From positions 23,080 through 87,079 of the forward strand of contig QWHN01000003.1 in the NCBI GenBank assembly GCA_021404905.1: a DNA stretch of 64,000 nt, given 5' to 3'. Under the pieces are notes generated by a model. That model was not told the DNA's origin. It searched no databases and saw only the letters and a program-made list of their open reading frames with translations. Below, in pieces: positions 1 through 62,995 of the stretch; position 1 is the first letter of the stretch, and each line of letters starts with the position of its first letter. A program made the translations under genes and the position numbers. The DNA comes from Candidatus Saccharibacteria bacterium CPR2. Its GTDB lineage: Bacteria; Patescibacteriota; Saccharimonadia; Saccharimonadales; QWHN01.

Positions 1-360
1 ATAAGCGGAGGAAAAGCACCTTACGCAATAAGTGTAGATTGGGGCGACGGTACCGTAGATCTAATTAGCCGTGAATTTGCCGGAGAATTTGAGATATCCC
101 ATGTTTATAAAGAACCGGGTACTTATAATGTGATAATAAAAATCACCGACGCGAATGGAAAAACCGCTTACTTGCAACTTGTAGCGGTAGCTAACGGTCC
201 GGTCGACACCACAACCACAAAACAATATGAGGACAAAGATCTAACCACGCAAACAAAAATTATCTTATGGCCGATGTATCTGTTAATCCCGTTGATACCA
301 ACAGCCTTTTATCTAGGCAAACGCCACGAACTCCACAGCCTGAAGAACCGCTTCAAATAA
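1..360 (+). CDS. C-terminal part of a surface protein: PKD-like domain plus C-terminal membrane anchor (5' end outside window)
   Basis: Frame 1 is open from base 1. Translation ISGGKAPYAISVDWGDGT...HVYKEPGTYNVIIKITDANGKTA fits the PKD-domain pattern (WxxGDG ... GxYxV). The tail ILWPMYLLIPLIPTAFYLGKRH is a hydrophobic helix followed by basic residues. Confidence 0.6.
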   Translation: MSGGKAPYAISVDWGDGTVDLISREFAGEFEISHVYKEPGTYNVIIKITDANGKTAYLQLVAVANGPVDTTTTKQYEDKDLTTQTKIILWPMYLLIPLIPTAFYLGKRHELHSLKNRFK

Positions 361-425
361 CATCAACCCATTGTTTATATAAGGGTTTGAAAGATTAGCC
401 GTTTACGGAGAATCATCAAAATCAT

Positions 426-481
426 CAAGGACAGACCCTGTAAATAACAGGGGTATTCTATACTCACAGGGTCTGTCCTTG
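426..481. repeat. Inverted pair of the 15-mer CAAGGACAGACCCTG (family C)
   Basis: Forward copy at 426-440 and exact reverse complement at 467-481, 26 nt apart. The same 15-mer recurs at 27333-27347, 27394-27408 and 39846-39860. Confidence 0.9.
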
Positions 482-531
482 TAATGCTCATAAAGCACGA
501 CAAAAACCTTATTAAACCATAATTTGCTATT

Positions 532-596
532 TTGCAGGGAGCCACCCTGCAAATACAGAGGTGGCTCATCTGTTATTGCAGGGTGGCTCCCTGCAA
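532..596. repeat. Compound palindrome built on TTGCAGGG(N5)CCCTGCAA (family D)
   Basis: TTGCAGGGAGCCACCCTGCAA (532-552) and its exact reverse complement TTGCAGGGTGGCTCCCTGCAA (576-596) flank a 23-nt centre. A related copy lies at 62855-62915. Confidence 0.85.
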
Positions 597-640
597 GACG
601 CTACGTTTCATATAAGCAAGGTGTTATACTGTTCCAGATT

Positions 641-1912
641 ATGAACAGGCTACCAAGAAATACTAAAGTTTATGTTGCCATGAGTGGTGGAGTTGATAGC
701 TCCGTGACTGCCGCGCTTCTCAAAGACCAGGGATATGATCTAACGGGTGTTTATATGAAAAACTGGACCAAAGACTTACCTGGTATGCGTTGCCCGTGGA
801 AAGAAGATGTGGCGGACGCAAAGCGTGTTGCAGTTGGGCTTGGCATCCCTTTTGAGATCTTTGATTTTCAAAAAGACTACAAGCAAAAAGTCGTAGACTA
901 TATGATCGATTCGTTTAAAAAAGGACTTACGCCAAACCCGGACATTATGTGCAACCAAGAGATAAAGTTTAAGTTGTTTTTGGAGACTGCGCTGGAGAAT
1001 GGAGCCGATTTAATAGCCACCGGACACTATGCCAGCCTGAAATCACTGGGCGCTTTGACTGCTAGATCGGCGAAGCCGACTACCCCTCAAAGCTCTCTGG
1101 GATCTACGTCGTCTAAACCTCCAGTACTCACTCATCGTATTGACGTGTACGACTCATTGCGTGCTTCGGTTTATCCTAGTAGCTCACCAGAGCCAATAAT
1201 TTCAGATACAGAAGTAGGAATGTTTATGGCTAAAGATGAGGCCAAAGACCAGACATATTTTTTATATCGCGTCTCTCAGGGGGCTTTGAAAAAAACTTTA
1301 ATGCCAATCGGTGATTATGCGAAATCAGAAGTTCGCGAATTGGCGAAAAAATATAAATTACCTACGGCAAACAAAAAGGACTCTGTCGGTATTTGTTTTG
1401 TGGGCGAGGTTGGGATTAAAGATTTTTTGGCGCAATATGTTAAAACTTCATCTGGCCCGATAGTAGACTCAGAAGGTAAGACAATCGGCCAACATGACGG
1501 CGCGATATTTTATACCATCGGTCAGCGCCATGGCTTAAAAGTTGGAGGCGGTTTCCCTTACTATGTTTGCGGCAAAGACATGAAGACGAATACGGTTTAC
1601 GTAACGCGGGACTTGGACGATGAAAGACTGTGGTCGGATGAGATTAAAATTATCCAAACGCATTGGATTAATTTACCGCCAAAGCCAGGTGAAAAATATA
1701 GAGTTCGTGTCAGACATCAGGGTGAATTAATTGACTGTCATGTTTCATCTCTAGCCAAAAATATCGCCACTCTAAAACTGGAAAAAGAAGTTCGGGCATT
1801 AGCCCCCGGCCAGTCCGCGGTGCTTTACTCGAAGTCGTTAGTGTTGGGTGGCGGAATCATAAATCTTTACAGGAAAACTGTTGTTTCAAGGCACCCCATT
1901 CTGCAAAACTAA
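641..1912 (+). CDS. mnmA: tRNA-specific 2-thiouridylase MnmA, with an unusual Ser/Pro/Thr-rich internal insertion
   Basis: PP-loop VYVAMSGGVDSSV, GHYA and KDQTYFLY motifs. ATG 641 is preferred over the track start 524 because 524-640 is the palindromic repeat. Confidence 0.9.
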   Translation: MNRLPRNTKVYVAMSGGVDSSVTAALLKDQGYDLTGVYMKNWTKDLPGMRCPWKEDVADAKRVAVGLGIPFEIFDFQKDYKQKVVDYMIDSFKKGLTPNPDIMCNQEIKFKLFLETALENGADLIATGHYASLKSLGALTARSAKPTTPQSSLGSTSSKPPVLTHRIDVYDSLRASVYPSSSPEPIISDTEVGMFMAKDEAKDQTYFLYRVSQGALKKTLMPIGDYAKSEVRELAKKYKLPTANKKDSVGICFVGEVGIKDFLAQYVKTSSGPIVDSEGKTIGQHDGAIFYTIGQRHGLKVGGGFPYYVCGKDMKTNTVYVTRDLDDERLWSDEIKIIQTHWINLPPKPGEKYRVRVRHQGELIDCHVSSLAKNIATLKLEKEVRALAPGQSAVLYSKSLVLGGGIINLYRKTVVSRHPILQN

Positions 1913-2297
1913 ATATATGTCTACATATATTTTGAAGCTGAACTTCATCTGGAGTAAATTTACAATCTTGTCTGGGTTGGTCGAAACCAAATAAACCATT
2001 TAGCTCTCGACGCATCTCCCTGCCTATTTGTTCTCTTTCTATTTCAGACTCTTTACTCTCAAGATCCAGTGACCCCATCCTTTTGCCAAATTCAAATGCT
2101 CTTTTCATTAAGCTAGGCAAATTTTCTTCTTCTATGCCATGATCTGCAAAATATGGCATGCAAAACCCCGGCTTGCCAACAGCCTCGGCAACCAACCATT
2201 CTATCTCCTGCTCTATATTCGGATTATTATAAGGATCAAAATCCATGCCAGAATCGGCAATTGTTTCAGTCATCTCTTTAATAGTTATATTAGACAT
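1857..2297 (-). CDS. Hypothetical acidic protein
   Basis: ORF with ATG at 2297 (MSNITIKEMTE...). No recognisable motif. Its 3' end overlaps the mnmA 3' end convergently by 56 nt. Confidence 0.5.
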   Translation of the reverse strand: MSNITIKEMTETIADSGMDFDPYNNPNIEQEIEWLVAEAVGKPGFCMPYFADHGIEEENLPSLMKRAFEFGKRMGSLDLESKESEIEREQIGREMRRELNGLFGFDQPRQDCKFTPDEVQLQNICRHIFSFAEWGALKQQFSCKDL

Positions 2298-2374
2298 CGA
2301 GAATAATACTCTCAAATACACCAAAGTCAATAGTTATTGATAATTGGCTGAAATTCGGCTACAATACCTCTGAT

Positions 2375-4273
2375 ATGAACGCTCACGAAATTCGCAGGAT
2401 CTATTTAGATTTTTTTAAGCAAAAAAATCACGCTATTTTACCTCGCACTACATTAGTGCCTCAAAACGACCCCACAACTTTGTTTACTGGTTCTGGGATG
2501 CAACCGATGTTGCCATATTTGCTTGGTGATGATCATCCAGAGGGGAAACGTTTGGCGGATTCTCAGACTTGTTTGCGAGCCGAGGATATTGAAGAAGTTG
2601 GGGATAACCGCCATACGACTTTTTTTGAAATGCTCGGCAACTGGAGTCTGGGAGATTATTTCAAGTCAGATCAACTACCTTGGTTTTTTGAGTTTTTGAC
2701 TGATGTAGTGGGACTTGATCCAAACAAACTTTACGTTTCTTGTTTTGCAGGAGACCAGGCTGCCAACATTTCTAAAGACGAAGAATCCGCGCACCTTTGG
2801 CAAAAACTTTTTGAAGACAAAAATGTGAGTGCCGAAATCATAGAGCTGGGCTCAGGCGAAGATGGCGCTAAAAAAGGTATGCAGGGCGGACGCATTTTTT
2901 ATTACGACGCGTCAAAAAACTGGTGGAGTCGAACCGGCGAGCCATCAAAAATGCCTTCAGGGGAACCGGGCGGGCCAGACAGTGAAGTTTTTTATGAGTT
3001 TAGTGAGATAGAGCACGACACAGCTTATGGTGAAAACTGCCACCCCAACTGCGATTGCGGCAGATATTTGGAAATTGGCAACTCCGTTTTTATGGAATAT
3101 ATCAAGCAAGATGATGGAAAATTGGTACATTTGCCGAAAAAAAACGTGGATTTTGGCGGAGGTTTGGAGCGTATCGCGGCGGCATCTTTAAACACTCCTG
3201 ATGTATTTAAAATCAGTTTGCTTTGGCCGATTGTTCAAAAGCTCGAAGAAGTATCCGGCCAAAAATATGAAGATCACCAGGAAAGCATGAGAGTAATTGC
3301 CGATCATTTACGGGCAGCTACATTTTTAGCGGTTGATGGCGTAATGCCCAGCAATAAGCAACAAGGCTACGTAATGCGTCGGTTAATGCGCCGGGCGATT
3401 CGGTTTTCTCTTGATTTAAATTTTGATTTTAACGTGTGCGAGCAAGTCGTGCCGGTGGTCGCCGATATTTACCACAATGATTTTCCCGAAGTTGCTCAGA
3501 ATCGAGAAATGATAACGGATGTCATGATTAAAGAAGAAAAGGCGTTTAAGCAGACCTTAAGGAAGGGTTTAAAAGTTTTTGAAAAACTTCTGGCCCGGAA
3601 GCACGAAGTACGAGGCACAAAGCACGGCGAAGTTATATTTAAGCTTTATGACACTTACGGATTTCCAGTTGAATTAACAATAGAAGAAGCACAGAAAAAA
3701 AACATCAAATTGGAAGATGAATGGCAAAAAGATTTTGATAATTTGCTCAAAGAACAACGTGAACGTTCACGTACGGCCACAAAAGGTGAATTTAAAGGTG
3801 GACTAGAAGGTTCTAACCCCATGCATAAGAAATATCACACTGCTACCCATCTGTTATACCGTGCTTTGAGGTTAGTCTTGGGCGATCACGTTTACCAACG
3901 AGGCAGTAATATTACTGAGGAAAGATTAAGATTTGATTTTTCCCATTCGGAAAAAATGACGGATGAAGAAATCAAAAAAACCGAAGATATTGTTAATAAA
4001 CAGATTAAAAATGACCTGCCGGTAAGGTGGGTAGAAATGAACACCAAAGAGGCTCAAGATCAAGGCGCGCGCGGACATTTTGGCGAGAAATACGGCGAAA
4101 CCAGCAAGGTTTACATAATGGGTGATGAGAAGAATCCGTTTAGCATGGAGCTATGCGGAGGGCCGCATGTAGATCATACCGGCGAATTATCAGAAGGCGA
4201 TAAAAAATTTAAAATAGTAAAAGAACAATCATCTTCAGCCGGAATTCGCAGAATTAAGGCGGTTTTGGAATAA
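2375..4273 (+). CDS. alaS: Alanine--tRNA ligase, short form lacking the C-terminal C-Ala domain
   Basis: Class-II core (FTGSGMQPM; WSLGDYF). Editing-domain metal motifs HTATHLLYRAL (HxxxH) and CGGPHV (CxxxH). Only 632 aa; the protein ends just after the editing domain. Confidence 0.9.
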   Translation: MNAHEIRRIYLDFFKQKNHAILPRTTLVPQNDPTTLFTGSGMQPMLPYLLGDDHPEGKRLADSQTCLRAEDIEEVGDNRHTTFFEMLGNWSLGDYFKSDQLPWFFEFLTDVVGLDPNKLYVSCFAGDQAANISKDEESAHLWQKLFEDKNVSAEIIELGSGEDGAKKGMQGGRIFYYDASKNWWSRTGEPSKMPSGEPGGPDSEVFYEFSEIEHDTAYGENCHPNCDCGRYLEIGNSVFMEYIKQDDGKLVHLPKKNVDFGGGLERIAAASLNTPDVFKISLLWPIVQKLEEVSGQKYEDHQESMRVIADHLRAATFLAVDGVMPSNKQQGYVMRRLMRRAIRFSLDLNFDFNVCEQVVPVVADIYHNDFPEVAQNREMITDVMIKEEKAFKQTLRKGLKVFEKLLARKHEVRGTKHGEVIFKLYDTYGFPVELTIEEAQKKNIKLEDEWQKDFDNLLKEQRERSRTATKGEFKGGLEGSNPMHKKYHTATHLLYRALRLVLGDHVYQRGSNITEERLRFDFSHSEKMTDEEIKKTEDIVNKQIKNDLPVRWVEMNTKEAQDQGARGHFGEKYGETSKVYIMGDEKNPFSMELCGGPHVDHTGELSEGDKKFKIVKEQSSSAGIRRIKAVLE

Positions 4274-4281
4274 AATCAAAA

Positions 4282-4356
4282 ATTAGGAAGTAGGAATCAG
4301 CAATTAGAAACTAGCGTTTTCAAAAACTAAATCCTAGTTTCCAATTGCTATTTCCC
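4282..4356. repeat. Degenerate copy of the TAGGAA/TAGAAA-word palindromic intergenic repeat (family A)
   Basis: GGAATCAGCAATTAGAAACTAG ... CTAGTTTCCAATTGCTATTTCC forms a roughly 22-bp imperfect hairpin just after the alaS stop. The word content matches the copies at 16811, 41365, 47638 and 62705. Confidence 0.7.
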
Positions 4357-4533
4357 GTCTTTATCCCCTTTTAAACACACCTTTGTGGAAGTAAAACAAA
4401 ACAGATTGAACTGATGACTGTTTGCAGTCCGAGCAGAGCGAGGACAAGTTCCGCAAGTTCAGTATGTTTTGGTGTAACTGGAACAAAGACAGTTGTTTGA
4501 ACTGGGGCGATACTTTTGGTAAAAGTACAAGCG

Positions 4534-4646
4534 ACAACTCTTACGCTTTTTTATGAGCTAAGGTACAATGTTATAGATGATATACGATAAAATAAAGGCC
4601 AAAGTTAAATCCCGTCAATCTGAGAATTCCAGGTATATCGTGTCTC
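4534..4646 (+). repeat. Direct repeat DR-A: orphan copy of the ftsA promoter region and first ~24 codons
   Basis: Hand alignment to 7893-8005 shows 109/113 identical positions. It encodes MIYDKIKAKVKSRQSENSRYIVS, then diverges into a stop. Confidence 0.9.
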
Positions 4647-4770
4647 CGCTCTCATAGGGATAAGCCCTAAGAGTAGCAGTGATCTCCTTTTGCTAGTTGA
4701 ATGGCGATCAAGCATTATAATTCTAAAGTGTCATGCGGATAATTATAGTGGGGTCGGTTGGAGTAAATTG

Positions 4771-6501
4771 ATGTCTAAAAGAATTAACATTTTACTTAAG
4801 AGATATAAAAATAGGCCAGAGAGCCACCCGACAATAATACTAGGGCAATTTGAGAGAGTCGGCTCTACTTATGTATTAGATACATATGAAAAGACAAATA
4901 TCGTTCACAATGAACCGTATAAGCAATTAGTTCCTACGGAATGGCCTATTTCATGTAGATATGATGACCAGCTTTCAACTATTGATGATTTTTTACTAGA
5001 TAAAAAAATCAGTTTGGAACATAAATATTGGTTGTATAATTTTGTATTGTCGCGATACTCCCCAGGCTCACAGGTGCTGAAAGAAACGAGCCTGCATCTT
5101 GCCCTTCCACAATTTCTCGAGTTATTCCCATATCACAAGCTAAAAGTGTTATCTAGGAATCCGCTTGGCATTGTTTCATCTTTTAAACGAAATGATCTTT
5201 ATGAGTTATGGAAATACGATAAAACGCGAGCAAGGCTAGACATACAAATAAAATCCGGAGCTGATAAATATTCAAGATTAACGTGCTTTACCAACAATGG
5301 ATCTCTATGGGATGAAAAACTGATGTGGCTAATTGGCCTAAATTCAATAATTTTATCTTGCAATTTAGCTAATATGGTATATGACACCGAATATTATGAT
5401 GATTTAATCAAACAATCTAACCCGACTAATTTAAAATTTAAAAATAAGGACAAAGAAGATTCTATATTTACCACAAACATTTGCAAAGAATACGATGATT
5501 TTGACAGAAGATTAACAAACACCGAGATTCGGAGGCTTAAATCCACAGCCGAATCCTGCATAGACTATGTCTATAAAAATTTTAATAAGAAAGAACGCCT
5601 CTTATTTGACAGGATATTTGGTTTCTATTTTTTGGGCAATGAAGCCAATTACACTTCCAAACGCACCCAAAATACCATGCATAGCCCGAGGGTTAACACG
5701 AGTACGCCAGGAAATTACAAAATAGTCGAGCGGGACGAGCTATACAACTATGAAGAAAAATATATACGAATGAAGGGAAGTCAGAATGTGCTATGGGCAA
5801 AGGGCTTGGTTACGAACGAAGCGATGTGTCATTTTCTGAATAATCTCCTGAGTGCGGGTTTTAGGTCGTCATTAAACTATTTGTTAGTTCGAGACAATAT
5901 GCCTCCCGAAAGGGGTGGTAGAATAATTTACAACAAAAGTTCCAACAGATTCGTTATGGTAAAAGGTTTCGAAAAACATCCTGTTTATTGGGTGAGTTGG
6001 TTATGCGCGTCAATATTCGCTAAGTATTGTGGCAGAAAATTACCAACTATCCATCAATGGATGAAGGCGTTCTATGCGAATAAGAGCATACTGATCAATA
6101 ATCAAAACAATCACTCGTATCTACATGATGATGTCGTCCCGACAGGAAAAACCTACAAGGGTTTACCTAAAGACTTCTTTGGTAATTTAAAAGTGTGGTG
6201 TAGAGATTGGGATATTAGTGCGGACAAGATAATGTTATCCAAAAATCTGGCTGGGATATCCTGGAAACATTACTATCACGATAAATACAAAATATGTTCC
6301 GAGAAACCATTCTTAACAAACTCAAGAGTGATTGGTATTCGGCTGGTTACTAGTCAGGCTGTCAGCAAAGAAAGAACAATCTATGGGATCGTCGAAGATC
6401 TAAATGATATAAATGACATCATTGCAAAGTCAGATATACGCACACCTAAAGATGCAAGTAGATTAAATGAAGCAGTGTCCGATATTTTAGATGGCTCGTA
6501 A
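4771..6501 (+). CDS. Fusion protein: sulfotransferase-like N-terminal domain plus FGE/SUMF1 (sulfatase-modifying-factor) like C-terminal domain
   Basis: N-terminal part: PAPS-loop-like QFERVGSTYV and RNPLGIVSSFKR. C-terminal part: HPVYWVSWLCASIFAKYCGRKLPTIHQWMKA and GNLKVWCRDW resemble the FGE-sulfatase core (PV..VSW..A..y..W.G.RLPTE.EW; GNV.EW). ATG 4771 is preferred over track start 4690. Confidence 0.55.
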   Translation: MSKRINILLKRYKNRPESHPTIILGQFERVGSTYVLDTYEKTNIVHNEPYKQLVPTEWPISCRYDDQLSTIDDFLLDKKISLEHKYWLYNFVLSRYSPGSQVLKETSLHLALPQFLELFPYHKLKVLSRNPLGIVSSFKRNDLYELWKYDKTRARLDIQIKSGADKYSRLTCFTNNGSLWDEKLMWLIGLNSIILSCNLANMVYDTEYYDDLIKQSNPTNLKFKNKDKEDSIFTTNICKEYDDFDRRLTNTEIRRLKSTAESCIDYVYKNFNKKERLLFDRIFGFYFLGNEANYTSKRTQNTMHSPRVNTSTPGNYKIVERDELYNYEEKYIRMKGSQNVLWAKGLVTNEAMCHFLNNLLSAGFRSSLNYLLVRDNMPPERGGRIIYNKSSNRFVMVKGFEKHPVYWVSWLCASIFAKYCGRKLPTIHQWMKAFYANKSILINNQNNHSYLHDDVVPTGKTYKGLPKDFFGNLKVWCRDWDISADKIMLSKNLAGISWKHYYHDKYKICSEKPFLTNSRVIGIRLVTSQAVSKERTIYGIVEDLNDINDIIAKSDIRTPKDASRLNEAVSDILDGS

Positions 6502-7056
6502 AATCAAGCATTGGTCAATTATATATTTGCAAATTTCCGGTATTTTATCGTTGTTGCCATTGTGTATCCTTACATCAGTTAAGTCTTTTACCTCATCCAG
6601 CTCATTTGCATCGTGGGCGTCAATAGCTAGCAATTGCGCGAGATTATCTACTTTATGCTTAACTAATCTACTTGTATGAGCTGGTGAGCCCCGACTAGTA
6701 CTTCTCGCGAGTCTTTCTTCTTGTGTCGCGATAACGTTGATAACATAAAAATTACGTTTTTTTAGTTCTTTTACGATTGCTGGAGATCTTACGCCATCTA
6801 CAGCCAAAGGATTTGGTAAATTATCTGAGAAAAAGTATAAAAGACCATTCAATGCAATCAATTCTTCTCTGGCATTCCTGTAGTCGGCGGGGGTAAATTC
6901 TGTTTCTGATGGTCGTGTATTAGCCAAGTGATTTAAAATATATTCCCCGGTATTAATACGACAGTATCCGAATTGTTCCTCTAAAGCACGTGCGATAGTG
7001 GATTTACCGGTCAGTATTTGGCCTGTAAGTAACAGATTTGGTTTGTCTGCGATCAT
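6487..7056 (-). CDS. P-loop nucleotide/nucleoside kinase-like protein
   Basis: Walker A TGQILTGKST. VDGVRSP...VINVIATQEERLARS resembles small adenylate/dephospho-CoA-kinase-like ATPases. Confidence 0.5.
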   Translation of the reverse strand: MIADKPNLLLTGQILTGKSTIARALEEQFGYCRINTGEYILNHLANTRPSETEFTPADYRNAREELIALNGLLYFFSDNLPNPLAVDGVRSPAIVKELKKRNFYVINVIATQEERLARSTSRGSPAHTSRLVKHKVDNLAQLLAIDAHDANELDEVKDLTDVRIHNGNNDKIPEICKYIIDQCLILRAI

Positions 7057-7073
7057 TTGTATATACTTAGAGC

Positions 7074-7508
7074 ATGTTTATAAGGGCTACCTGCTTTTGT
7101 ATTAAAGATTGTAAGGTATTGGTTGTCAAACAAAACTTTCCAGACGTAGACAGGGAATGGTCCCTTCCCGGGGGTAAGGTCGAAGAAAGTGAAACACTAT
7201 TTGAGGCGGTTGTGCGTGAGACAAAAGAAGAAACAGGCGTATTGGTTGAACCTAAGAAATTACTATATATAACGGAATCAATTCAAAAAGAAAAACACAT
7301 ACTACATATATTGATAGCATGCGACTATATTGAGGGAACAACTGGTGTAGGGCTGAAGTTAACTAAGAACGAGAGAATACCTATTGTTAAATTTATTTAT
7401 ATAGAAGAGTTGAAAAAGCTGGGTTTTGCCAACAAATTTATCAATTTAATTGAAACGAATTTTCCGGAACCTGTTTATCGCGGTAAAAAGGAAAATATAG
7501 GTTTGTAG
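7074..7508 (+). CDS. NUDIX hydrolase
   Basis: Nudix box GGKVEESETLFEAVVRETKEETGV (GX5EX7REUXEEXGU). Confidence 0.85.
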   Translation: MFIRATCFCIKDCKVLVVKQNFPDVDREWSLPGGKVEESETLFEAVVRETKEETGVLVEPKKLLYITESIQKEKHILHILIACDYIEGTTGVGLKLTKNERIPIVKFIYIEELKKLGFANKFINLIETNFPEPVYRGKKENIGL

Positions 7509-7532
7509 ATACTGTTCGATAATGTTATAAGT

Positions 7533-7772
7533 ATGTTTATTATGGCAGAAAATACAGGCCAGGATCCAACAGGTATTGATGCAATTTTTTCGGATATAGT
7601 TCACCGAGTTCCAGAACTTTTTGATTATGACGCTCGTCCAAGGGAAGTTCCATCTGAGCTTTTTGAACACCCCCCCAGGGGGCACATTGCTTTTAACGGT
7701 GGTTACGAGCAAGGCAAAGAGCTACCTTCGTGTAAAGATAATGGAGAACAAGATCAAGTCATAGAAGAATGA
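7533..7772 (+). CDS. Small acidic hypothetical protein
   Basis: 79-codon ORF, the last gene of the islet. No motif recognised. Confidence 0.35.
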   Translation: MFIMAENTGQDPTGIDAIFSDIVHRVPELFDYDARPREVPSELFEHPPRGHIAFNGGYEQGKELPSCKDNGEQDQVIEE

Positions 7773-7892
7773 TAAAAATATCCAATCAGAAAAACCAAAG
7801 CAACAATCTCTACATAAAGTGCCCGATTCCTTATCAAAAAATACATAAAAACCGCATTACAAAGCATTGTTTTTAAGTACAAAATCACAGTC

Positions 7893-8005
7893 ACAACTCT
7901 TACGCTTTTTTATGAGCTAAGGTACAATGTTATAGATGATATTCGACAAAATAAAGACCAAAGTTAAATCCCGGCAATCTGAGAATTCCAGGTATATCGT
8001 GTCTC
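7893..8005 (+). repeat. Direct repeat DR-B: functional ftsA promoter region and 5' end
   Basis: Partner of 4534-4646. Contains a TACAAT -10-like hexamer and the real ftsA start at 7936. Confidence 0.9.
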
Positions 8006-9210
8006 TCGATGTTGGTACCGAGTTTGTTAAAGCACTGATTGGGAGGGTTGACGGGGACGCAATAGAAATTATTGGCGTTGGCCGCAAACATCAGGAACTG
8101 GCGGATATGCACTCTGGGGCCATTGCGGACATCAGCGCGGTGGTTGCGAATTGCGAGAGCGCTTTGACGCAGGCCGAAAAACAAGCCGGGGTTAGTGCCA
8201 GGCAAACTGTTATCGGAGTAGCTGGTGAACTCGTAAAAGGAACAAATGGCACGATTCGTTATAAGCGCGCTAATCCTAAGCAGGAAATAACCATGGACGA
8301 AATGGAGTATATTGTAAAAAAAGTCCAGGAACGAGCTCAAAAACAGGCTAAGAAGCAATTAAATTGGGAACTCGGTATAAATGATGTTGACATTCGTATG
8401 GTCAACAGCGCGATTGTTTCAATACAGATTGACGGATATAAAGTCAGCAACCCCATTGGTTTTCAGGGTCGAGACGTAGCGATCCAGCTTTACACCGCTT
8501 TCGCGCCAATGATTCACATCGGAGCGCTTGAAAGAACCGCGACGGATCTCGACCTGGATTTAATAGCAATCGCAGCCGAACCGTTCGCGGTAGCACGCTC
8601 AGTTATCGGAGATGATGCCAGTAGCAATTTTAGCGCGGTTTTGATTGACGTAGGAGGCGGAACAACAGATATAGCCGTGGTTAATGACGGTGGTGTCGAA
8701 GGTACAAAGATGTTTGGAATCGGCGGCAGAAGCTTTACGAAAAATATCGCCAGTGAACTGAATCTAAGTTTTGGGGTGGCTGAAGAATTAAAGTTAAGGT
8801 TAAGTTCAGGAAAACTTGAAAAATCTCAGGAAGAAACAGCGCTTAAAGCCGTTCAAAAAACTCTTGCCGTTTGGCTGAGTGGAGTCGAGTTGGCGCTGAG
8901 TGAGTTTGAAAGCCTGGATCGTTTACCGACAAAAATTTTACTGTGCGGCGGCGGCGCTAGTCTAAAAGCCTTGGTTGATGCCCTAAAACAGAAACAGTGG
9001 CACATAAATCTGCCTTTTAGCAGGCAGCCCGACATACAGTATATCCAGCCGGAACAGGTAATTAAAATTACAGACACGACGGGTAAAGTCACGGATCATA
9101 GCTACATTACGCCAATGGGCTTGTTGAGAGTGGGCCATGATACAATACAAACCAGCAATGACACCAGTTCATCAATAACAGAGAAACTTAATCGAATGCT
9201 TAGAATATGA
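7936..9210 (+). CDS. ftsA: Actin-like cell-division protein FtsA
   Basis: SLDVGTEFVKALIG (phosphate-1), VLIDVGGGTTDIAV (phosphate-2), MFGIGGRSFTKNIA..AEELK, and a C-terminal amphipathic tail EKLNRMLRI. Confidence 0.75.
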   Translation: MIFDKIKTKVKSRQSENSRYIVSLDVGTEFVKALIGRVDGDAIEIIGVGRKHQELADMHSGAIADISAVVANCESALTQAEKQAGVSARQTVIGVAGELVKGTNGTIRYKRANPKQEITMDEMEYIVKKVQERAQKQAKKQLNWELGINDVDIRMVNSAIVSIQIDGYKVSNPIGFQGRDVAIQLYTAFAPMIHIGALERTATDLDLDLIAIAAEPFAVARSVIGDDASSNFSAVLIDVGGGTTDIAVVNDGGVEGTKMFGIGGRSFTKNIASELNLSFGVAEELKLRLSSGKLEKSQEETALKAVQKTLAVWLSGVELALSEFESLDRLPTKILLCGGGASLKALVDALKQKQWHINLPFSRQPDIQYIQPEQVIKITDTTGKVTDHSYITPMGLLRVGHDTIQTSNDTSSSITEKLNRMLRI

Positions 9211-9361
9211 GATCATTTACCAATTATCATTTAGCATTTAGCAATAATTTTGCATTATACAGCTGCCAATGGTCGCATCTTTTTAGAAAGAAAACTGAAA
9301 ATTGCCAATTTAATATTAACTGTAAACTGACAATTGTAAATTTGAGCGAGCAGGGAAAGCG

Positions 9362-10975
9362 ATGAAGAAGGATGTAATCTACATTGATGCTGATGATGAC
9401 ATTACGGCGATAATTGACAAAGTCAAGGGGTCTTCAGCTAAGATCATCGCGCTTGTTCCGCCAAAGCGCTCTACTGTCTTGCAAAGCTTGGTTAATATGA
9501 AGCTTTTAAAGCGCACCGCGGATGACGCTTCAAAAAGGATTGTATTAATTACCAACGAACAATCGCTTTTACCTTTAGCCGGCGGAATCGGGCTATACGT
9601 GGCGCGAAATTTACAATCCAAGCCATACATTCCTGAGGCAAAAGGATATGAACCTTCAGCGAAAGAGAACGTAATAGATGAAAGCGGAGAATTGGATGAG
9701 AGTCATAAGGTCCTGTCCCATAAACCATCCCAGACACAAGCTGTGCCTCCAAAGGCTCCAACAAGCTTCAGCAAAGACAAACCAGCTTCACCAAAGAAAA
9801 AAAGAATTCCAAGTTTTGAGAAGTTCCGCACTAAGTTATTTCTGATAATTGGGGGAGTGCTATTACTTGCCATTTTATGGTTCGTCGCATTTTGGGTAAT
9901 GCCTAAAGCCAATATTGTAATAAAGGCGCAAACGTCCAGAATTGAGATTAACGAATCATTTAATGTTGGTAAGAATTTGGAAACAAATAACGAGAAGAAC
10001 ACGTTCAAAGCCGAGGAACAAACGTTATCTAAAACAGTTACGGAAAAGTTTAAGGCTACTGGGGAAAAGAATATTGGCAACAAGGCGTCTGGAACTATTA
10101 CGGTTCAAAACTGCGATTCCTCAAGCTCAATAGAAGTTCCAGCAGGCACGACTTTTACTTCTTCGGGCGGTTTAAGTTTTGTCAGTTCTCAAGCGGCTAC
10201 GGTTTCGGGCGGTTCATTCTCCGGCGGTTCTTGTAGCGCTCCTGGAGAAAATAATGTCACTGTAACTGCCGATAAGCCCGGCGGAGAATATAATCTGGCT
10301 AGTGGCACGTCATACACATTGTCGGGTCAAAGCGGGTTTGTAACAGGCTATGGCGGGCAAATGAGTGGCGGCACGACTCAAATGGCCAAGGTCATTACCC
10401 AAGCTGATGTGGATGAGGCTAAAAACAAGCTTAGCCAGCAAAATAACGAAGAAGCAAAACAAGAACTATCCGCCAAATTTAATAAGGATTCCACTTATAT
10501 TCTAGGGGCTACCTTTACGGTTACCAGTTCACAGCCCACGGTTAGTCCAGCAGTTGACACACAAGCGGATGAGGGCACCGCGACTATGCAAATAACTTAT
10601 ACTATGCTTGCGCTTAGCAAAGACGAGTTTAACTCTTATCTTGATTTTAAAATTGAAGGCAAGATTGATAAAAACAAACAAGAAATATACGAAAATGGCA
10701 TTGAAAACATCAAACTATCACTAACCAGCCAAGACGGTTCAAAAACTTTTCTGTTTTCCGCTAAAGCAAATGCTTATGTCGGGCCAAAGTACGATAAAGA
10801 CGAGATTGCCAAAGAAATCAGCGGCAAACGATTCAGCGAGGTGATTAAAATACTGGAGAGCAGGCCAGGTGTTAATTCCGCGGATGTAAAATTCTCTCCT
10901 TTCTGGGTAAGTAAAGCCCCGCGGCCAAGCAGGATAAATATTGAGTTTGAAGTTTCCGAACACAACTTGCAGTAA
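9362..10975 (+). CDS. Hypothetical single-pass membrane protein with a large Ser/Thr/Gly-rich extracytoplasmic region
   Basis: Soluble N-domain, one TM helix (LFLIIGGVLLLAILWFVAFWVMP), then beta-rich sequence (ASGTITVQN...VPAGTTFTSSGGLSF). Sits directly after ftsA. Confidence 0.6.
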   Translation: MKKDVIYIDADDDITAIIDKVKGSSAKIIALVPPKRSTVLQSLVNMKLLKRTADDASKRIVLITNEQSLLPLAGGIGLYVARNLQSKPYIPEAKGYEPSAKENVIDESGELDESHKVLSHKPSQTQAVPPKAPTSFSKDKPASPKKKRIPSFEKFRTKLFLIIGGVLLLAILWFVAFWVMPKANIVIKAQTSRIEINESFNVGKNLETNNEKNTFKAEEQTLSKTVTEKFKATGEKNIGNKASGTITVQNCDSSSSIEVPAGTTFTSSGGLSFVSSQAATVSGGSFSGGSCSAPGENNVTVTADKPGGEYNLASGTSYTLSGQSGFVTGYGGQMSGGTTQMAKVITQADVDEAKNKLSQQNNEEAKQELSAKFNKDSTYILGATFTVTSSQPTVSPAVDTQADEGTATMQITYTMLALSKDEFNSYLDFKIEGKIDKNKQEIYENGIENIKLSLTSQDGSKTFLFSAKANAYVGPKYDKDEIAKEISGKRFSEVIKILESRPGVNSADVKFSPFWVSKAPRPSRINIEFEVSEHNLQ

Positions 10976-11021
10976 TAGTTATGCCTGCTGAATTAATTTG
11001 AGAATATAGAGATTTTGATCA

Positions 11022-11432
11022 ATGCAATTTAATAACGCTATAGCACTGGATGTGGGAGACAAGAGAATCGGCATCGCCAGGGTCAATAAAATTGCCCAGA
11101 TTGTCCGTCCGCTAGCAACAATAATTCGCGAGGGGGATGAATTTAAGCAATTAAAGGACATTATTTCTCGAGAGAGCATTGATTTAATTGTAATAGGCCG
11201 GCCTCGCAACATGAAGGGCGAAGAGACTTTGCAAACCGCGAGAATCGAAGAATTTGTTAGATTATTACCAGAAAATGGGATAAATATAAAAATTGTTTTT
11301 CAGGACGAATCTCTAACGTCTGTCCAAGCTGAAAATTTGCTAAAACAAGAGAAAAGAGATTATAACAAAAGTGATATAGATATGAGGGCAGCGTGCATCA
11401 TTCTGCAGGATTTCCTGGAAAGTAACATTTAA
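11022..11432 (+). CDS. ruvX: Putative pre-16S rRNA nuclease / Holliday-junction resolvase-like YqgF
   Basis: N-terminal IALDVGDKRIGIA motif and a ~135 aa size typical of YqgF/RuvX. Confidence 0.8.
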   Translation: MQFNNAIALDVGDKRIGIARVNKIAQIVRPLATIIREGDEFKQLKDIISRESIDLIVIGRPRNMKGEETLQTARIEEFVRLLPENGINIKIVFQDESLTSVQAENLLKQEKRDYNKSDIDMRAACIILQDFLESNI

Positions 11433-11437
11433 AAATT

Positions 11438-12466
11438 ATGGTAAGTTTTTTTAAATCCAAGGTTTTTATTATCGTGCTAGTCACCCTAACTATTTTAGGC
11501 ATCGGTGCAATAGGCGCATGGTATGGTGTAAACAGCTGGTACAAAAATTCTCTTGAGCCGAGAGATAAAATGGGCAGAGATGTTGTGGTAACAATAGAAA
11601 GTGGCCAAGGAGTGAGCGACATTGGGGACCTTCTTGAAAATAAGGCGGTTATTATAAGTTCAAAAGCATTTGGATGGTATGTATCACGCCAAAACGTTAA
11701 AGATCAACTTCAAGCAGGCACATACCGTTTAAGTCCGGCTTATTCAGTCCCCGAAATCGTCGAAATACTGGCAAATGGACGCGTGGATGTTAAATCAGTA
11801 ACTTTTACGCCCGGAATGCGCCTTGATCAAATAGAAGCCGTGCTAAAGGAGGAATTTGAAATATCTAAAGTAAGAGAAGCGCTAAATAAAAGATATGACC
11901 ACCCTGTGTTTAGTTTTATACCTGAAGGTTCGACCCTTGAGGGCTACATTTATCCGGACACTTATCAGATAAATAGCGAATCAAAACCAGAGGATGTTGT
12001 TAAGATGGCCTTAGATGAATTTGCTGCGAATCTGGAAGAGCCAATTAAACAAGGCATAGAAAAACAGGGTTTGAATATTCATCAGGCTGTTATTATCGCT
12101 TCGATCGTTCAGCAGGAAGTTCCGGATTATAAAACTCAGATTACGGTCGCGCAGGTTTTCTTAAAGCGATTTAGAGACCGAATGCCTTTGGGGGCCGACC
12201 CTACATTTAAGTATGCGGCTGCGATAACTGGAGCGGAATCAAGCCCTGATCTTGATTCGCCCTATAACACGAGAAAAAATACCGGCTTGCCACCCGGGCC
12301 TATTGGTAATTTTTTGATCGATGCGCTGCGAGCAGTATCCAGCCCAGACAACACCGATTATCTTTATTTTGTATCTGGCGATGATGGAATTACCAGATTT
12401 TCCAAAACGGAAGAAGAACATAACGTACTGGTGGAACAGTATTGCAAAGAGCTCTGTTCGCAGTAG
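11438..12466 (+). CDS. mltG: Endolytic murein transglycosylase MltG (YceG-like)
   Basis: N-terminal TM, AGTYRLSP, YNTRKNTGLPPGPIGNF and YLYFVSGDDG motifs. Confidence 0.85.
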   Translation: MVSFFKSKVFIIVLVTLTILGIGAIGAWYGVNSWYKNSLEPRDKMGRDVVVTIESGQGVSDIGDLLENKAVIISSKAFGWYVSRQNVKDQLQAGTYRLSPAYSVPEIVEILANGRVDVKSVTFTPGMRLDQIEAVLKEEFEISKVREALNKRYDHPVFSFIPEGSTLEGYIYPDTYQINSESKPEDVVKMALDEFAANLEEPIKQGIEKQGLNIHQAVIIASIVQQEVPDYKTQITVAQVFLKRFRDRMPLGADPTFKYAAAITGAESSPDLDSPYNTRKNTGLPPGPIGNFLIDALRAVSSPDNTDYLYFVSGDDGITRFSKTEEEHNVLVEQYCKELCSQ

Positions 12467-12499
12467 GATTGACATAAGAATTTTAATATTTTAGTAGAT

Positions 12500-12761
12500 A
12501 TGTTCTAACGGGGGTAGGACAGTGTGGAAAAACAATTGACTCCAGTCTCCGGCTTTGTTAAAATCACAAGCGTCTATCGGGTACTTTGGCAGTGGGAGCT
12601 TACCTTTGTTGCAGAATCAGAGCTGGTGGCACCAATGTCATCTGATAGCCTTCCGAGAAAGGTCGACACGAGAATAGATATGCGAGGTCGGCATTTCTCT
12701 GTCCCGATAACATCGGGAGCAAGACCAAGTATCGGAAGCGGTTCCAGCGGTAACGCGGAAC
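12500..12761 (+). promoter_or_regulatory. Structured, GC-enriched 5' leader of the LysM-CHAP hydrolase gene; possible ydaO-type (c-di-AMP) riboswitch
   Basis: About 260 nt are noncoding, with 32/60 G+C at 12661-12720, and four overlapping artefactual ORFs on both strands. AATCAGAGCTGGTGGCACCAAT resembles the ydaO core AUCAGAGCGGGGGACCCAAU. The hairpin GTTCCAGCG-GTAA-CGCGGAAC abuts the ATG at 12762. Confidence 0.4.
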
Positions 12762-13970: not shown

Positions 13971-14080
13971 TTAATTTTGTAAAACAAAAACGCTGATAAT
14001 GAGGAAGCGACTTTATGGAGACGAAGTCGCTTCTTTTCTTTATAGCTTTAAACTTTACACTTTCAACTTTATACTGATGA

Positions 14081-15370
<1,290 letters not shown>

Positions 15371-26189: not shown

Positions 26190-27716
26190 ATGAAAAGAGA
26201 AAATTTGGAGAAAAAAATCTCTCAATTGCCAAGTTGTCCTGGAGTATATTTTTTTAAAAATAAAAAAATGCAAATTATTTATGTTGGTAAAGCTTCAAAC
26301 TTGAAGAATAGAGTCAGGCAGTATTTTCAAAATTCACGTCCTAAAGATCCTAAAACACAAGTTTTAATAAATGAAATTAGTGATGTTGAGATCATTGAGG
26401 TGGCTTCGGAAATTGACGCGTTATTTCTTGAAGCCGAACTCATTAAAAGGTACAAACCACCTTACAACATAGAAGAACGAGACGATAAGTCGAATCTGTT
26501 TATTCGTATTGATATAAACTCACCACATCCAACCGTATCGTTTACGAGGCGGCCGTTTGATGATGGAGCGAAATACTTTGGCCCCTATATATCAGGGCCG
26601 GCAATTCGCAAAGCCATGCGGTATTTACGTCGGGTTTTCCCTTATGACACTAAGGTTGCCAGAAGTAGGAAGCAAAATCTCGAGCATCACCTGGGCTTAT
26701 CTCCAGGACTTGAACTTGGAAAAACTACTTTAAGCGAATATAGGGATAATCTCAGAAGACTTATTTCTTATTTGAAAGGGAATCGTACTAAACTGATCCG
26801 CGAACTTGAAGCTGAAATGAAAAAAACCGCGAAAGCTCAGAATTTCGAACAAGCAGCAATTTATCGAAATCAAATATCACATTTAAAAGAGGTTACTAGG
26901 CAGATTGTTTTTGGTAACGAAGAATTTTTGGATATATCTAAAGACCAAGCGCTAAATGGTTTGTGCGAAATTTTGGGTTTGGCGAACGCCCCAAAACGCA
27001 TCGAAGGCTATGATATCTCTCACATGAGCGGAACTAATAATGTCGCGAGTTTGGTGGTTTTTACTAACGGCTTACCAGATAAGGCACAGTACCGCAAGTT
27101 TAAAATGAGGCTCAAGGGAAATGATGATTTTGCGCATATGCGGGAAGTGTTAACCCGTAGGTTTAGCGGTAATAATCTTCAAAATTGGCCAAAACCGGAT
27201 TTGATCCTTATCGACGGCGGAAAAGGCCAGCTTGCTGCGGCAATTAATGTTCTTCTCGAAAAAAAAATACATATACCAGCCATTGGTTTGGCAAAAAAAC
27301 ATGAGGAAATCATCATCAACCGCGAATATCTTCAAGGACAGACCCTGCAAAATAGAAAAAAAGACAGAGGTAGTATTAACGAAACCGAGTTTTCAAGGAC
27401 AGACCCTGTAAGAGGTGGAAATGGGAAATATGAAGTGCTCTCGTTGGGGGAAGATTCACACGTTAGAAAGTTGCTTCAGAGGATTCGCGATGAATCTCAT
27501 CGTTTTGCCGTAAGTTATCATTCTCTACTCAGAGTCAAAGCGCAAAAAATCAGCGAGCTTGATTCTATAACCGAAATCGGGCCAGCTACAAGAAAAAAAT
27601 TAATTAAAAATTTTGGCAGCGTTTTGGGCATAAAAACTGCCAGCCAAAATGAACTTGCAAAAGTTGTTGGAAAAAATAAAGCTAGTATACTTAGGCAATA
27701 TTTCTCTAAAAAGTAG
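26190..27716 (+). CDS. uvrC: Excinuclease ABC subunit C, with an in-frame insertion carrying two copies of the family C 15-mer
   Basis: GIY-YIG (GVYFFKNKKMQIIYVGKASNLKNRV), UVR motif (FEQAAIYRNQISHLK), IEGYDISH, RDESHRFAV and a C-terminal HhH. Confidence 0.93.
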   Translation: MKRENLEKKISQLPSCPGVYFFKNKKMQIIYVGKASNLKNRVRQYFQNSRPKDPKTQVLINEISDVEIIEVASEIDALFLEAELIKRYKPPYNIEERDDKSNLFIRIDINSPHPTVSFTRRPFDDGAKYFGPYISGPAIRKAMRYLRRVFPYDTKVARSRKQNLEHHLGLSPGLELGKTTLSEYRDNLRRLISYLKGNRTKLIRELEAEMKKTAKAQNFEQAAIYRNQISHLKEVTRQIVFGNEEFLDISKDQALNGLCEILGLANAPKRIEGYDISHMSGTNNVASLVVFTNGLPDKAQYRKFKMRLKGNDDFAHMREVLTRRFSGNNLQNWPKPDLILIDGGKGQLAAAINVLLEKKIHIPAIGLAKKHEEIIINREYLQGQTLQNRKKDRGSINETEFSRTDPVRGGNGKYEVLSLGEDSHVRKLLQRIRDESHRFAVSYHSLLRVKAQKISELDSITEIGPATRKKLIKNFGSVLGIKTASQNELAKVVGKNKASILRQYFSKK

Positions 27717-39255: not shown

Positions 39256-41270
39256 ATGAATCCCAGGCAAAAATCAGGGTAGAAAAATTAAGAGAAGAAA
39301 TAGAGAAGCATCGCTATGCGTACTACGTTTTAGATATTCCAGAGATTAGCGATGAAGCATATGATTCTCTTGTGCACGAGCTGGAAAAACTGGAAGCTAA
39401 ATTTCCTGAATTGGCAGATCCAAATTCTCCTACCAGGCGTGTTGGCGCTAAACCTCTTGAAAAATTTCAATCCGCAAAACATTCGCGCCCAATGCTTAGT
39501 CTCAACGACGCGTTTGATAAAAAGGACGTCGAAGCATGGGTTCAGCGGATTTCAAAATTTTTACCAAAAAGCTATAAGCCCAAGTATCATGTTCAATTAA
39601 AGCTGGACGGTCTTGCTTGCGCCATAATTTATGAAAATGGTATTTTCCAGAAAGCTTTAACCAGGGGTGATGGTAAAGTTGGCGAAGATGTATCTCAAAA
39701 TGTGCGCACTATCAGATCAATTCCGTTAAAATTACGTCGCAGCAGTAAAGCACCAAAAGAAGCATATACGTCAAGGGTTGAAGTTCGTGGCGAGATAGTT
39801 ATTTATAAGAGAGATTTTGAAAAGATTAACAAAGAAAGAGAAGAACAAGGACAGACCCTGTTCATGAATCCGCGCAATACTGCCGCTGGGACGATTAGGC
39901 AACTTGATCCAAAACTGGTAGCTTCGCGCCCCTTAAGGTTTTATGCGTGGGGGCTTGAAATTGATGGAGCCTCAATAGAGAAGCATTCTGAGGAATACGA
40001 ACTTGCCAAGGAACTTGGGTTTGTTGTAAGTACCCAAACTACTGTTGCGTACAATGTTGATGAGGTAATGAAATTCGTAAAAACCTGGGAGCAAAAGCGT
40101 CATGATTTGCCCTTTAATACTGATGGTTTGGTAATTGCTATCAATAATCGGAAAATATATGACGATCTTGGGTCGGTAGGAAAAGCACCGCGAGGGGCCT
40201 TGGCGTATAAATATCCGCCCGAGCAACAGACAACAAAAGTAAAAGACATATTCGTTTCAATTGGCCGAACCGGCGCGGCGACGCCAGTAGCTATGCTTGA
40301 GCCAGTTATAATTGCTGGCTCCAGGGTGGAAATGGCCACGCTTCATAATGAGTCGGAAGTGAAGCGCAAAGACGTGAGAATTGGCGATACCGTAATAGTA
40401 CACAAGGCAGGAGATATTATTCCCGAAATAGTCGAATCTATAAAAAGCTTGAGGGATGGCAGCGAAAAAATTTTTCATATGCCAAAAAAATGTCCGGATT
40501 GCAGCACCGAGTTAATAAAACCAGCTGACGAGGCAGTTTGGCGTTGCCCGAACAGAAATTGTCCTGCTCGCGTGCAAAATCACATCAGGCATTTTGCTTC
40601 TAAATCCGCCATAGACATTGAAGGTCTTGGTGAAAAAAACGTAACTGTCTTACTGGAGTCTGGGCTCATAAAAGACGAGGCGGATTTGTATTCATTAAAA
40701 GAGGAAGACGTTTCGAAACTGGAACGCTTCGCGGAGCTTTCGGCGAAAAATTTAGTAAATGCTATTAATGCCAAGAAAAACCCTAGCTTGGAGAGGTTCA
40801 TTTTTGCTCTCGGGATAAGACATGTAGGTGTGCAAACGGCTATCGATTTAGCCAAAAAATTTGGATCTTTAGAATCACTGACGCGGTCTTCAATCCAGCA
40901 GCTAGAGGAAGTGGACGGCGTTGGCGGGAAAGTCGCCGAGAGCATAGCCGCGTGGTTCGCGGACGACGAAAATCAAAAGTTGTTAAATAAGTTCGAAAAA
41001 GCTGGGGTTAAACCGCAAAAATATGCCATAGTCAGCGGAAAACTGGAAGGCAAATCATTTGTAGTTACGGGTACGCTAGAGACTATGGGCAGGGAAAAAG
41101 CAGCAGAATTAATACGCAAGATGGGTGGCAAATTTATCTCCAGCGTATCAAAAGACACTACTTATCTTGTTGTTGGCGACAATCCTGGGGAGTCAAAACG
41201 CCAGGCAGCAAAAAAACACGGCATTAAAATTATCAACGAAGATGAGTTTATAGGATTATTAAAAAGTTGA
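39252..41270 (+). CDS. ligA: NAD-dependent DNA ligase
   Basis: KLDG adenylation motif, Zn finger CPDCSTELIKPADEAVWRCPNRNCPAR, HhH repeats and a C-terminal BRCT (FVVTGTL...). Confidence 0.95.
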   Translation: MNESQAKIRVEKLREEIEKHRYAYYVLDIPEISDEAYDSLVHELEKLEAKFPELADPNSPTRRVGAKPLEKFQSAKHSRPMLSLNDAFDKKDVEAWVQRISKFLPKSYKPKYHVQLKLDGLACAIIYENGIFQKALTRGDGKVGEDVSQNVRTIRSIPLKLRRSSKAPKEAYTSRVEVRGEIVIYKRDFEKINKEREEQGQTLFMNPRNTAAGTIRQLDPKLVASRPLRFYAWGLEIDGASIEKHSEEYELAKELGFVVSTQTTVAYNVDEVMKFVKTWEQKRHDLPFNTDGLVIAINNRKIYDDLGSVGKAPRGALAYKYPPEQQTTKVKDIFVSIGRTGAATPVAMLEPVIIAGSRVEMATLHNESEVKRKDVRIGDTVIVHKAGDIIPEIVESIKSLRDGSEKIFHMPKKCPDCSTELIKPADEAVWRCPNRNCPARVQNHIRHFASKSAIDIEGLGEKNVTVLLESGLIKDEADLYSLKEEDVSKLERFAELSAKNLVNAINAKKNPSLERFIFALGIRHVGVQTAIDLAKKFGSLESLTRSSIQQLEEVDGVGGKVAESIAAWFADDENQKLLNKFEKAGVKPQKYAIVSGKLEGKSFVVTGTLETMGREKAAELIRKMGGKFISSVSKDTTYLVVGDNPGESKRQAAKKHGIKIINEDEFIGLLKS

Positions 41271-41364
41271 AAGCGCAGCAAACATATCTTATAATCATAA
41301 GCGACTTATGTGACTCGGAGCTTTAGCTCGTGCACATGGGTGGGCGTGCATGAGCCCACAACAA

Positions 41365-47733: not shown

Positions 47734-47735
47734 AC

Positions 47736-62704: not shown

Positions 62705-62995
62705 CGATTAGGAACTGGCAATCAGGAAATAGAAAATAGTATATTTTTAAAAACTAGTTCCTAATTCCCAACTTCTAGTTTTCAATTTTCATTCGCTTGG
62801 TAGCGAATCAATTTTCAAATTCTTTTTCCTAATTGCCAATTGCTATTTGCTCTCTTGCAGGGTGGCACCCTGCAAGAACAGATAGTGGCCCCTGGAGTTG
62901 AAAGGAGCCACCCTTACTACTGTTCTCTCCTAATTCCCAATTCCTATTTTCTAGTTTCCAATTTCTGTTTTCTGTTCCCGGCCGGCTATTTCATT
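62705..62995. repeat. Composite intergenic repeat block: family A copy, a family D TTGCAGGG palindrome (62855-62915) and more TAGGAA-type words
   Basis: GGAAATAGAAAATAGTATATTTTTAAAAACTAGTTCCTAATTCC (family A core). TTGCAGGGTGGCACCCTGCAAGAACAGAT is related to the reverse complement of 532-596. Confidence 0.8.

Follow-up and report, generated by a model that had tools for sequence, protein, structure and literature searches.

A 15-nucleotide quasi-palindromic word in uvrC, ligA and an intergenic hairpin of a Saccharibacteria genome, and its resemblance to DNA uptake sequences

The 15-mer CAAGGACAGACCCTG, referred to here as W, occurs in five exact copies within a 64-kb stretch of DNA (the window), a chromosome segment with a GC content of 41.7% from a Candidatus Saccharibacteria bacterium CPR2 strain. 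In the genome of its closest relative the corresponding sites in uvrC and ligA carry related words with other letters, and comparison of the aligned genes indicates that conservation at the DNA level acts on the word as such, which is uniform inside a genome and spelled otherwise between genomes. The single mechanism that we rank highest for this pattern, as a tentative choice among several, is an uptake-sequence-like tag of self DNA.

The window encodes an MnmA protein identical to NCBI protein MCE7936769.1, and the proteins homologous to its UvrC, LigA and MnmA come from Saccharimonadales. Among its genes are mnmA, alaS, ftsA, ruvX, obg, sbcB, uvrA, uvrC, ligA, tatC and nine tRNAs. W is the most repeated word of 11–15 nt in a k-mer census of the window, it was absent from all of 100 dinucleotide-preserving shuffles, and allowing up to three mismatches revealed no extra site in the window (shuffle mean 0.75). 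An analysis of the bare sequence (the original prediction) had reported five exact copies, three of them inside conserved genes; all five are confirmed at the positions it gave, two in uvrC and one in ligA (Table 1). Its description of W as independent of reading frame and as present both in and outside genes also holds, since the word is read in two frames in uvrC (LQGQTLQ and FSRTDPV), again in ligA (EQGQTLF), and recurs in the intergenic hairpin H1. The partial matches it listed at 61508 and 51043 proved to be single extra 9-mers at 61509 and 51040, which represent chance, since about 0.5 matches are expected per 9-mer.

Table 1. Positions in the window of the copies of W and of related hairpin features.
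Feature	Position	Strand	Description
W copy 1	426..440	+	Exact match; 5' arm of hairpin H1, pairs with 467-481
W copy 2	467..481	-	Exact match; 3' arm of hairpin H1
W copy 3	27333..27347	+	uvrC site 1 (variable loop), read in frame QGQTL
W copy 4	27394..27408	+	uvrC site 2, frame RTDP, 61 bp past site 1
W copy 5	39846..39860	+	ligA, frame QGQTL; in place of the family's xGLPK, length unchanged
Box AACAGGGGTA	446..455	+	In the H1 loop; degenerate third arm-like copy
Hairpin H2	532..596		TTGCAGGGAGCCACCCTGCAA / 24 nt / TTGCAGGGTGGCTCCCTGCAA; same build as H1, other word
Hairpin H3	62855..62917		TTGCAGGGTGGCACCCTGCAA / 22 nt / degenerate partner; decayed relative of H2

Chance, a recent segmental duplication, and an assembly or adapter artefact are excluded as sources of W, and we give this trivial explanation practically no weight. 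Besides the empty shuffles, the flanks of the five copies are alike only in one T on either side (about 16 bases in total), so one duplicated segment, which the original prediction had named as the finding that would overturn it, cannot account for them. Identical copies recur in independent assemblies from several sequencing runs, which excludes an assembly artefact, and the orthologous sites are occupied in a genome about 25–30% diverged at the nucleotide level. UvrC variants of the same protein cluster, being identical to the window in DNA, added no information. The sequence covered comprises approximately 73 kb of this genome, approximately 25 kb of the sister genome described below and 16 kb of a metagenome-assembled genome (MAG WB4_3_0875). 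The 9.4 kb upstream of the window hold no further copy, giving a density of about one W per 13–15 kb (five copies in 73 kb of this genome).

All three genic copies lie on the sense strand, in poorly conserved protein loops. In ligA, W encodes QGQTL; almost all relatives have xGLPK at this position and the length is the same, indicating that this copy was written by substitutions and not by insertion; an extended symmetry (GAACA...TGTTC) surrounds it. Among Saccharimonadales the uvrC loop varies both in length and in sequence. In this clade UvrC is about 34 residues longer than its nearest short-form relatives, and the uvrC element, whose ends are palindromic, adds approximately 100 bp in frame to a surface loop. 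No structure is predicted for the uvrC pair of this genome (z = +0.6), although both of its words are exact, which argues that the letters are kept and not the pairing. A reading of QGQTLF as a clamp-binding peptide was dropped because the second uvrC copy lies in another frame and the synonymous positions are frozen.

In the closest relative (the sister genome, from run ERR4450749) UvrC and LigA share 75% protein identity with those of the window, and nucleotide identity across uvrC and ligA is 70–72%. Comparison of uvrC and ligA orthologues, as the original prediction had advised, showed that the sister genome carries variant words at all three genic sites. Where the window has W, its ligA and uvrC site 1 carry CAAGGACWGTCCTTG, which reads CAAGGACAGTCCTTG in ligA and as the reverse complement of that word in uvrC site 1. 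These two words define the perfect palindrome CAAGGAC-W-GTCCTTG (its central W being the A/T ambiguity code), named S. The word at uvrC site 2 is CCAGGACAGACCCTG, named W'. W differs from the sister word at positions 10 and 13, and the same two letters differ at two unlinked sites. Raw 15-nt identity windows were non-discriminating because conserved protein motifs score high too, and a test of third-codon positions was used in their place: 14 of the 15 third positions at the three sites are identical between window and sister, against a background of 0.44–0.45 (binomial P = 1e-4), and the spacer between the uvrC sites is identical at 21 of 46 positions (46%). It is this combination of frozen third positions, a diverged spacer and an unfolded uvrC pair that points to conservation of the word at the DNA level.

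Templated "correction" of quasi-palindromes is an established mutagenesis route, and S can be derived from W by making the right arm the complement of the left. Such correction, acting site by site, could therefore have produced the parallel double change in the sister genome; it would leave the exactness of W at three loci of the present genome unexplained. Taken together, the ligA copy and the frozen synonymous sites speak against a pure mobile-element footprint, and the genic copies, unfolded here yet exact, speak against a pure structural element. What remains is a word read as sequence by some putative cognate factor.

The hairpin that the original prediction placed downstream of the PKD-domain gene is confirmed. 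H1 lies 66 nt past the stop of that gene, consists of W copies 1 and 2 as inverted arms around a 26-nt loop, and folds as DNA at -18.6 kcal/mol (z = -7.2). Fifty bases past H1 sits H2, and the two jointly reach an RNA fold of -92 kcal/mol (z = -9.9). The arms of H1, H2 and H3 all fit the quasi-palindromic pattern CARGG-N5-CCYTG, and each of the three loops, that of H2 included, holds a degenerate third copy of the arm. This pattern was found eight times in the window against 0.085 expected, and W belongs to a wider family of CARGG-N5-CCYTG quasi-palindromes. A 9–10-mer of the box in the H1 loop recurs in the spacer of the uvrC pair at another Saccharimonadales locus (L143) and directly past a hairpin at locus L032 of MAG WB4_3_0875. 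Scanning metagenomes for the inverted W pair yielded no match. In viral sequences W had 19 single matches, consistent with chance, and the H2 arm and the S palindrome had none, so that no phage link was found for any of the three words. The sister's counterpart of H1 was sought through MnmA homologues, which returned close strains or unrelated lineages, the sister genome not being among them.

Members of the family also occupy the uvrC loop of other Saccharimonadales. The L143 loop holds CAGGGTCCGACCCTG twice, and this pair folds (z = -4.8) with each site on itself. The loop of L240, a locus with 54% GC, holds CAGGGTCCGACCCTG and CAGGGTGGGACCCTG, and here site 1 pairs with site 2 in one long hairpin (z = -5.9); no further palindrome copy was present there within 21.6 kb. 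L151, L163 and L173 carry TTGCARGG-N5-CCYTGCAA in the loop, and all three matches of the full GCARGG-N5-CCYTGC pattern in 464 kb of Saccharimonadales loci fall inside uvrC. W is a hybrid of two half-sites, CAAGGAC as in S (A) and CAGGGTC as in L143 and L240 (B), which are combined as AA in the sister genome and strain L226, as AB in the present genome, and as BB in L143 and L240. The uvrC palindrome pair is older than W. At L170 (1794-1824) the uvrC loop holds an unrelated perfect palindrome, GTACAAATTGCGAA-aaa-TTCGCAATTTGTAC, and the loop seems to collect palindromes of any sequence.

A scan of species-representative genomes gave at least 120 matches to W, with about 1,100 chance matches expected in the 596 Gb searched, and among the matches listed nearly all were chance singletons. 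MAG WB4_3_0875 stood out, carrying W as a perfect hairpin with an 18-bp stem and as a second hairpin that contains one mismatch; these lie at gene 3' ends, in two intergenic regions (L032 and L081). It had no other words above chance in common with the window. No NCBI-sourced UvrC homologue among those listed outside the CPR2 cluster exceeded approximately 60% identity, and this MAG is probably distant from CPR2 if its uvrC was assembled and indexed.

Closer at hand, strains about 93% identical to the window retain H1 unchanged, and H2 either unchanged or with a single C-to-T change. They also carry added palindromes past alaS that are absent from the window, namely CAGGGTTCAGCCCTG, S and, in two strains, W'. 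The presence of W, S and W' together in such a strain shows that several spellings can share one genome, and the differences past alaS among strains show that spacers gain and lose elements. Relative to positions 1-14900 of the window, strains L225–L227 are 99.4% identical up to position 1035, 72% across the 3' part of mnmA, 85–89% in alaS and 93% beyond. Such blocks (99, 72, 89 and 93%) indicate frequent homologous recombination with diverged DNA, so that the strains are mosaics.

Several of these observations would be expected if W belonged to a family of hairpin repeats of REP/BIME, dRS3/NTS or MITE type with a cognate enzyme. On this view the enzyme (a RAYT-type Y1 transposase, an Ssn-type single-stranded DNA nuclease or a recombinase) would copy or homogenise units made up of arm, spacer with third box, and arm, and the uvrC pair would be an old in-frame insertion, as with Rickettsia palindromic elements. 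We regard this explanation as a close rival of the self tag, and as only somewhat less likely. It accords with the one build shared by H1, H2 and H3 at gene ends, with the alignment of H1 and the uvrC element through their spacers, including a common ACAGRGGTA box, and with the roughly 34 residues added to UvrC and the long hairpin of the L240 uvrC element. The palindromes past alaS in related strains that are missing here, the breaking of short-read contigs at repeat-rich spacers, and the presence of W in a MAG without other words detected in common with the window point the same way. Selfish repeats would nevertheless be expected to decay, whereas the genic copies are kept at orthologous sites with third positions frozen; nor does the explanation suit a ligA copy that is not an insertion, or a uvrC pair that is unfolded here with both words exact.

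Individual members of this class resemble W in different ways. The dRS3 repeat (ATTCCC-N8-GGGAAT) is likewise built as arm, variable centre and arm (PMC11893778), and dRS3/NTS with Ssn nucleases and NIME of Neisseria share with the W family short inverted arms with a variable centre, a location near genes and hairpins, as well as an arrangement of two palindromes bracketing a 25–50-bp spacer and a link to transformation. They differ from it in that W has copies inside coding sequence and in the words themselves. The Ssn-related motif HGTCWY...RNCYNB (PMC11893778) was not matched on the plus or the minus strand of the window, which also contains no small single-domain GIY-YIG gene, UvrC alone having a GIY-YIG motif. 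REP, BIME and REPIN elements resemble the W family as imperfect palindromes at gene 3' ends, in inverted doublets with a linker and with a genome-specific sequence, and H1 and H2 fold as long hairpins in the manner of REP/BIME-type doublets. REP elements, however, are strictly extragenic, whereas three of the five W copies lie inside uvrC and ligA; W copies are also partly single, genic and orthologously conserved, and have no GTAG-type head. No RAYT (Y1 transposase) was recognised among the window ORFs, all of which were inspected by eye and 20 scanned against Pfam. The Rickettsia palindromic elements share with the uvrC element an in-frame palindromic insertion placed within a surface loop of an enzyme of essential type. 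The uvrC element is shorter, the residues that it adds (about 34 relative to short-form relatives) have no counterpart in ligA, where the copy involves no insertion, and between genomes only the ends of the uvrC element and not its body are conserved. The suggestion of the original prediction that W could be the site or footprint of a mobile or recombination system is therefore plausible as far as composite hairpins of REP/BIME or dRS3/NIME type are concerned; a simple insertion footprint does not fit a ligA copy that adds no length.

The symmetry of W (10 of 15 positions, and perfect in the sister's word) invites another explanation, that a dimeric protein with a chromosome-organising or regulatory role binds it, as at parS, Noc, matS or SlmA sites or at a DNA-damage operator, W being present at a few tens of sites per chromosome and inside genes because the genome is compact. 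A length of 15 bp with 7-1-7 symmetry and half-sites combined as AA, AB and BB across genomes would suit such a protein, as would paired sites, conserved orthologous positions and a location in DNA-repair genes. A density of about one per 13 kb fits the class of architectural or regulatory dimer sites. Mixed half-site combinations would be expected within the genome, though, and each of the five copies is one and the same asymmetric hybrid; lone half-sites show no clear enrichment (16 against 6.5 expected, with five of the 16 within W), and the sites lie deep inside genes and not in promoters. A consensus scan found no canonical parS in the window. Weighing these points, we rank a dimer site third, as a less likely yet close rival of the self tag.

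Recognition might instead occur on RNA, with the H1 region being transcribed, its 3' arm (CAGGGUCUGUCCUUG) pairing with the uvrC and ligA mRNAs, and the expression of these repair genes thereby coupled to a small RNA. The genic copies are on the sense strand in three of three cases, H1 and H2 are very stable as RNA hairpins, and the C-to-T change of H2 in related strains would retain a G-U pair on the plus strand. Set against this, three of three on the sense strand is not significant, the presumed seed is locked in a perfect 16-bp stem, and complementarity at 15 of 15 positions goes beyond what small-RNA targeting needs. No Rfam family reached its gathering score in a search with H1 and H2, and a permissive search returned weak generic hairpin and snoRNA models only, all well short of the gathering thresholds. 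Scans of H1 and H2 for simple consensus elements yielded no T-tailed terminator and no convincing promoter, the sole promoter-like match being at chance level. An RNA-level role thus appears highly improbable.

On the reading as a self tag, W would be a recognition word, read as sequence. It is neither a relic of duplication nor of a single mobile insertion; it is the present spelling, in this genome, of the quasi-palindromic CARGG-N5-CCYTG words that a clade of Saccharimonadales carries as arms of short intergenic hairpins at gene ends, and in uvrC and ligA also as bare copies, introduced by point substitution where the protein loop is tolerant. A competence or pilus protein would read the tag on double-stranded DNA, so that uptake and recombination would be biased to tagged DNA. 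Both the reading of W by a protein and the link to DNA uptake are what we infer from the distribution and conservation of the word. To our knowledge, biased uptake and recombination, as with the DUS of Neisseriaceae and the USS of Pasteurellaceae, is the sole process giving words that are written by substitution, uniform within a genome and variable in dialect, and it is for this reason that an uptake-like tag is rated most likely. The exactness of W, its over-representation, the constraint at the DNA level, the variant spelling at orthologous sites and the inverted pairs at gene ends all speak for it.

The likeness to DUS and USS extends to a short exact word present on either strand, within genes in any frame as well as between them, to inverted-pair hairpins at gene ends (H1 here, L032 and L081 in the MAG), and to a location in tolerant protein regions and genome-maintenance genes, same-site dialects between lineages and a transformable host group. 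Genome-maintenance genes make up approximately 8 of the 57 kb or so of coding sequence in the window, and both genes with W are among them (P ~0.02), which matches the bias of DUS toward such genes (Davidsen 2004, PMC373393, as cited in PMC3630211). Dialects of DUS and their inverted-pair terminators have been described (PMC3630211). Natural transformation in Saccharibacteria is comEC-dependent, and com genes are conserved across CPR (PMC10633639). The recombination mosaics formed by strains of this species were also counted in favour of the tag.

Several observations count against an uptake tag. First, its density is low. W is over-represented in the window (five copies against none in shuffles), and the DUS/USS class occurs roughly once per kb; genomes of roughly 2.4 Mb contain 2,426–5,918 DUS (PMC3630211), so that W is 10–30 times less dense in the sequence covered. 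Second, W is 15 nt long and quasi-palindromic, with perfectly palindromic relatives, and we know of no DUS or USS that is palindromic. Third, W, S and W' co-occur within one related strain, H2 and H3 are built of other words, the hairpins contain a third box, and the uvrC pair is old. Finally, cultivated Saccharibacteria have been transformed with synthetic DNA having only 545-bp native flanks (PMC10633639), and a check for competence genes, which the original prediction had recommended, found no competence, pilus or transposase genes in the window (ORF translations read, 20 proteins scanned against Pfam). The resemblance to DNA uptake sequences that it had proposed is therefore partly supported: exactness, frame independence, copies both within genes and between them, and inverted pairs agree with it, and the same-site dialects and the location in genome-maintenance genes can be added to these; over the sequence covered the density is lower, the word is quasi-palindromic, and the window has no competence genes. 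HIP1 of cyanobacteria offers a further comparison, being likewise a palindromic word in coding and non-coding sequence that is kept beyond protein needs; it differs as a perfect palindrome of 8 bp that is hundreds of times denser.

Saccharibacteria are ultra-small epibionts only recently shown to be naturally transformable, and we know of no account of how they discriminate self from foreign DNA. No uptake sequence for Patescibacteria/CPR was described in the literature searched. A more specific proposal, that W is the first uptake-sequence-type self tag outside Proteobacteria, spelled in lineage dialects, biasing transformation of Saccharibacteria and favouring DNA-repair genes, we put forward as a doubtful one. 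A short word under apparent selection at the DNA level and spelled otherwise in a sister genome would nonetheless be a concrete and testable candidate for self-DNA discrimination. If W is not a self tag, it would represent dispersed palindromic repeats of a new class, in otherwise nearly repeat-free genomes. Either way it could serve as a handle for transforming uncultivated CPR lineages, for finding the protein that reads W, and for tracing recombination in populations.

The window contains other features of note. A second, AT-rich repeat family (4274-4361, 16826-16931, 41363-41522, 47628-47743 and 62701-62980) forms long imperfect hairpins directly past the ends of genes including alaS, sbcB and ligA; its words include TAGGAAACAGCAATT and GAAATAGAAAATAG, and same-strain short-read contigs end there. 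Two direct repeats of 113 nt, 96% identical (4534-4646 and 7893-8005), flank a 3.2-kb segment encoding an FGE-sulfatase-like protein, a small reverse-strand gene and a NUDIX protein, and the absence of this segment from the approximately 93%-identical strains L225–L227 marks it as a strain-specific island. A LOOT RNA (Rfam RF03000) at 35941-36057 on the minus strand scores 82.6 bits, clearing the gathering score by a wide margin, and adjoins tRNA-Leu and tRNA-Val genes. The 5' half of tRNA-Phe has a further copy at 53876-53917, which is 83% identical to 54143-54184, is not called as a tRNA and may be an integration scar. Owing to a 103-nt repeat, 78% identical, at 55883-55985 and 56540-56642, two adjacent ORFs have a common N-terminus, MFEMRQLSCT. 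A small ORF (34348-34728) encodes a CdiA C-terminal toxin-like domain, and the ORF at 57491-58282 encodes an M23-peptidase protein with a prepilin-like N-terminus (GFALVEV).
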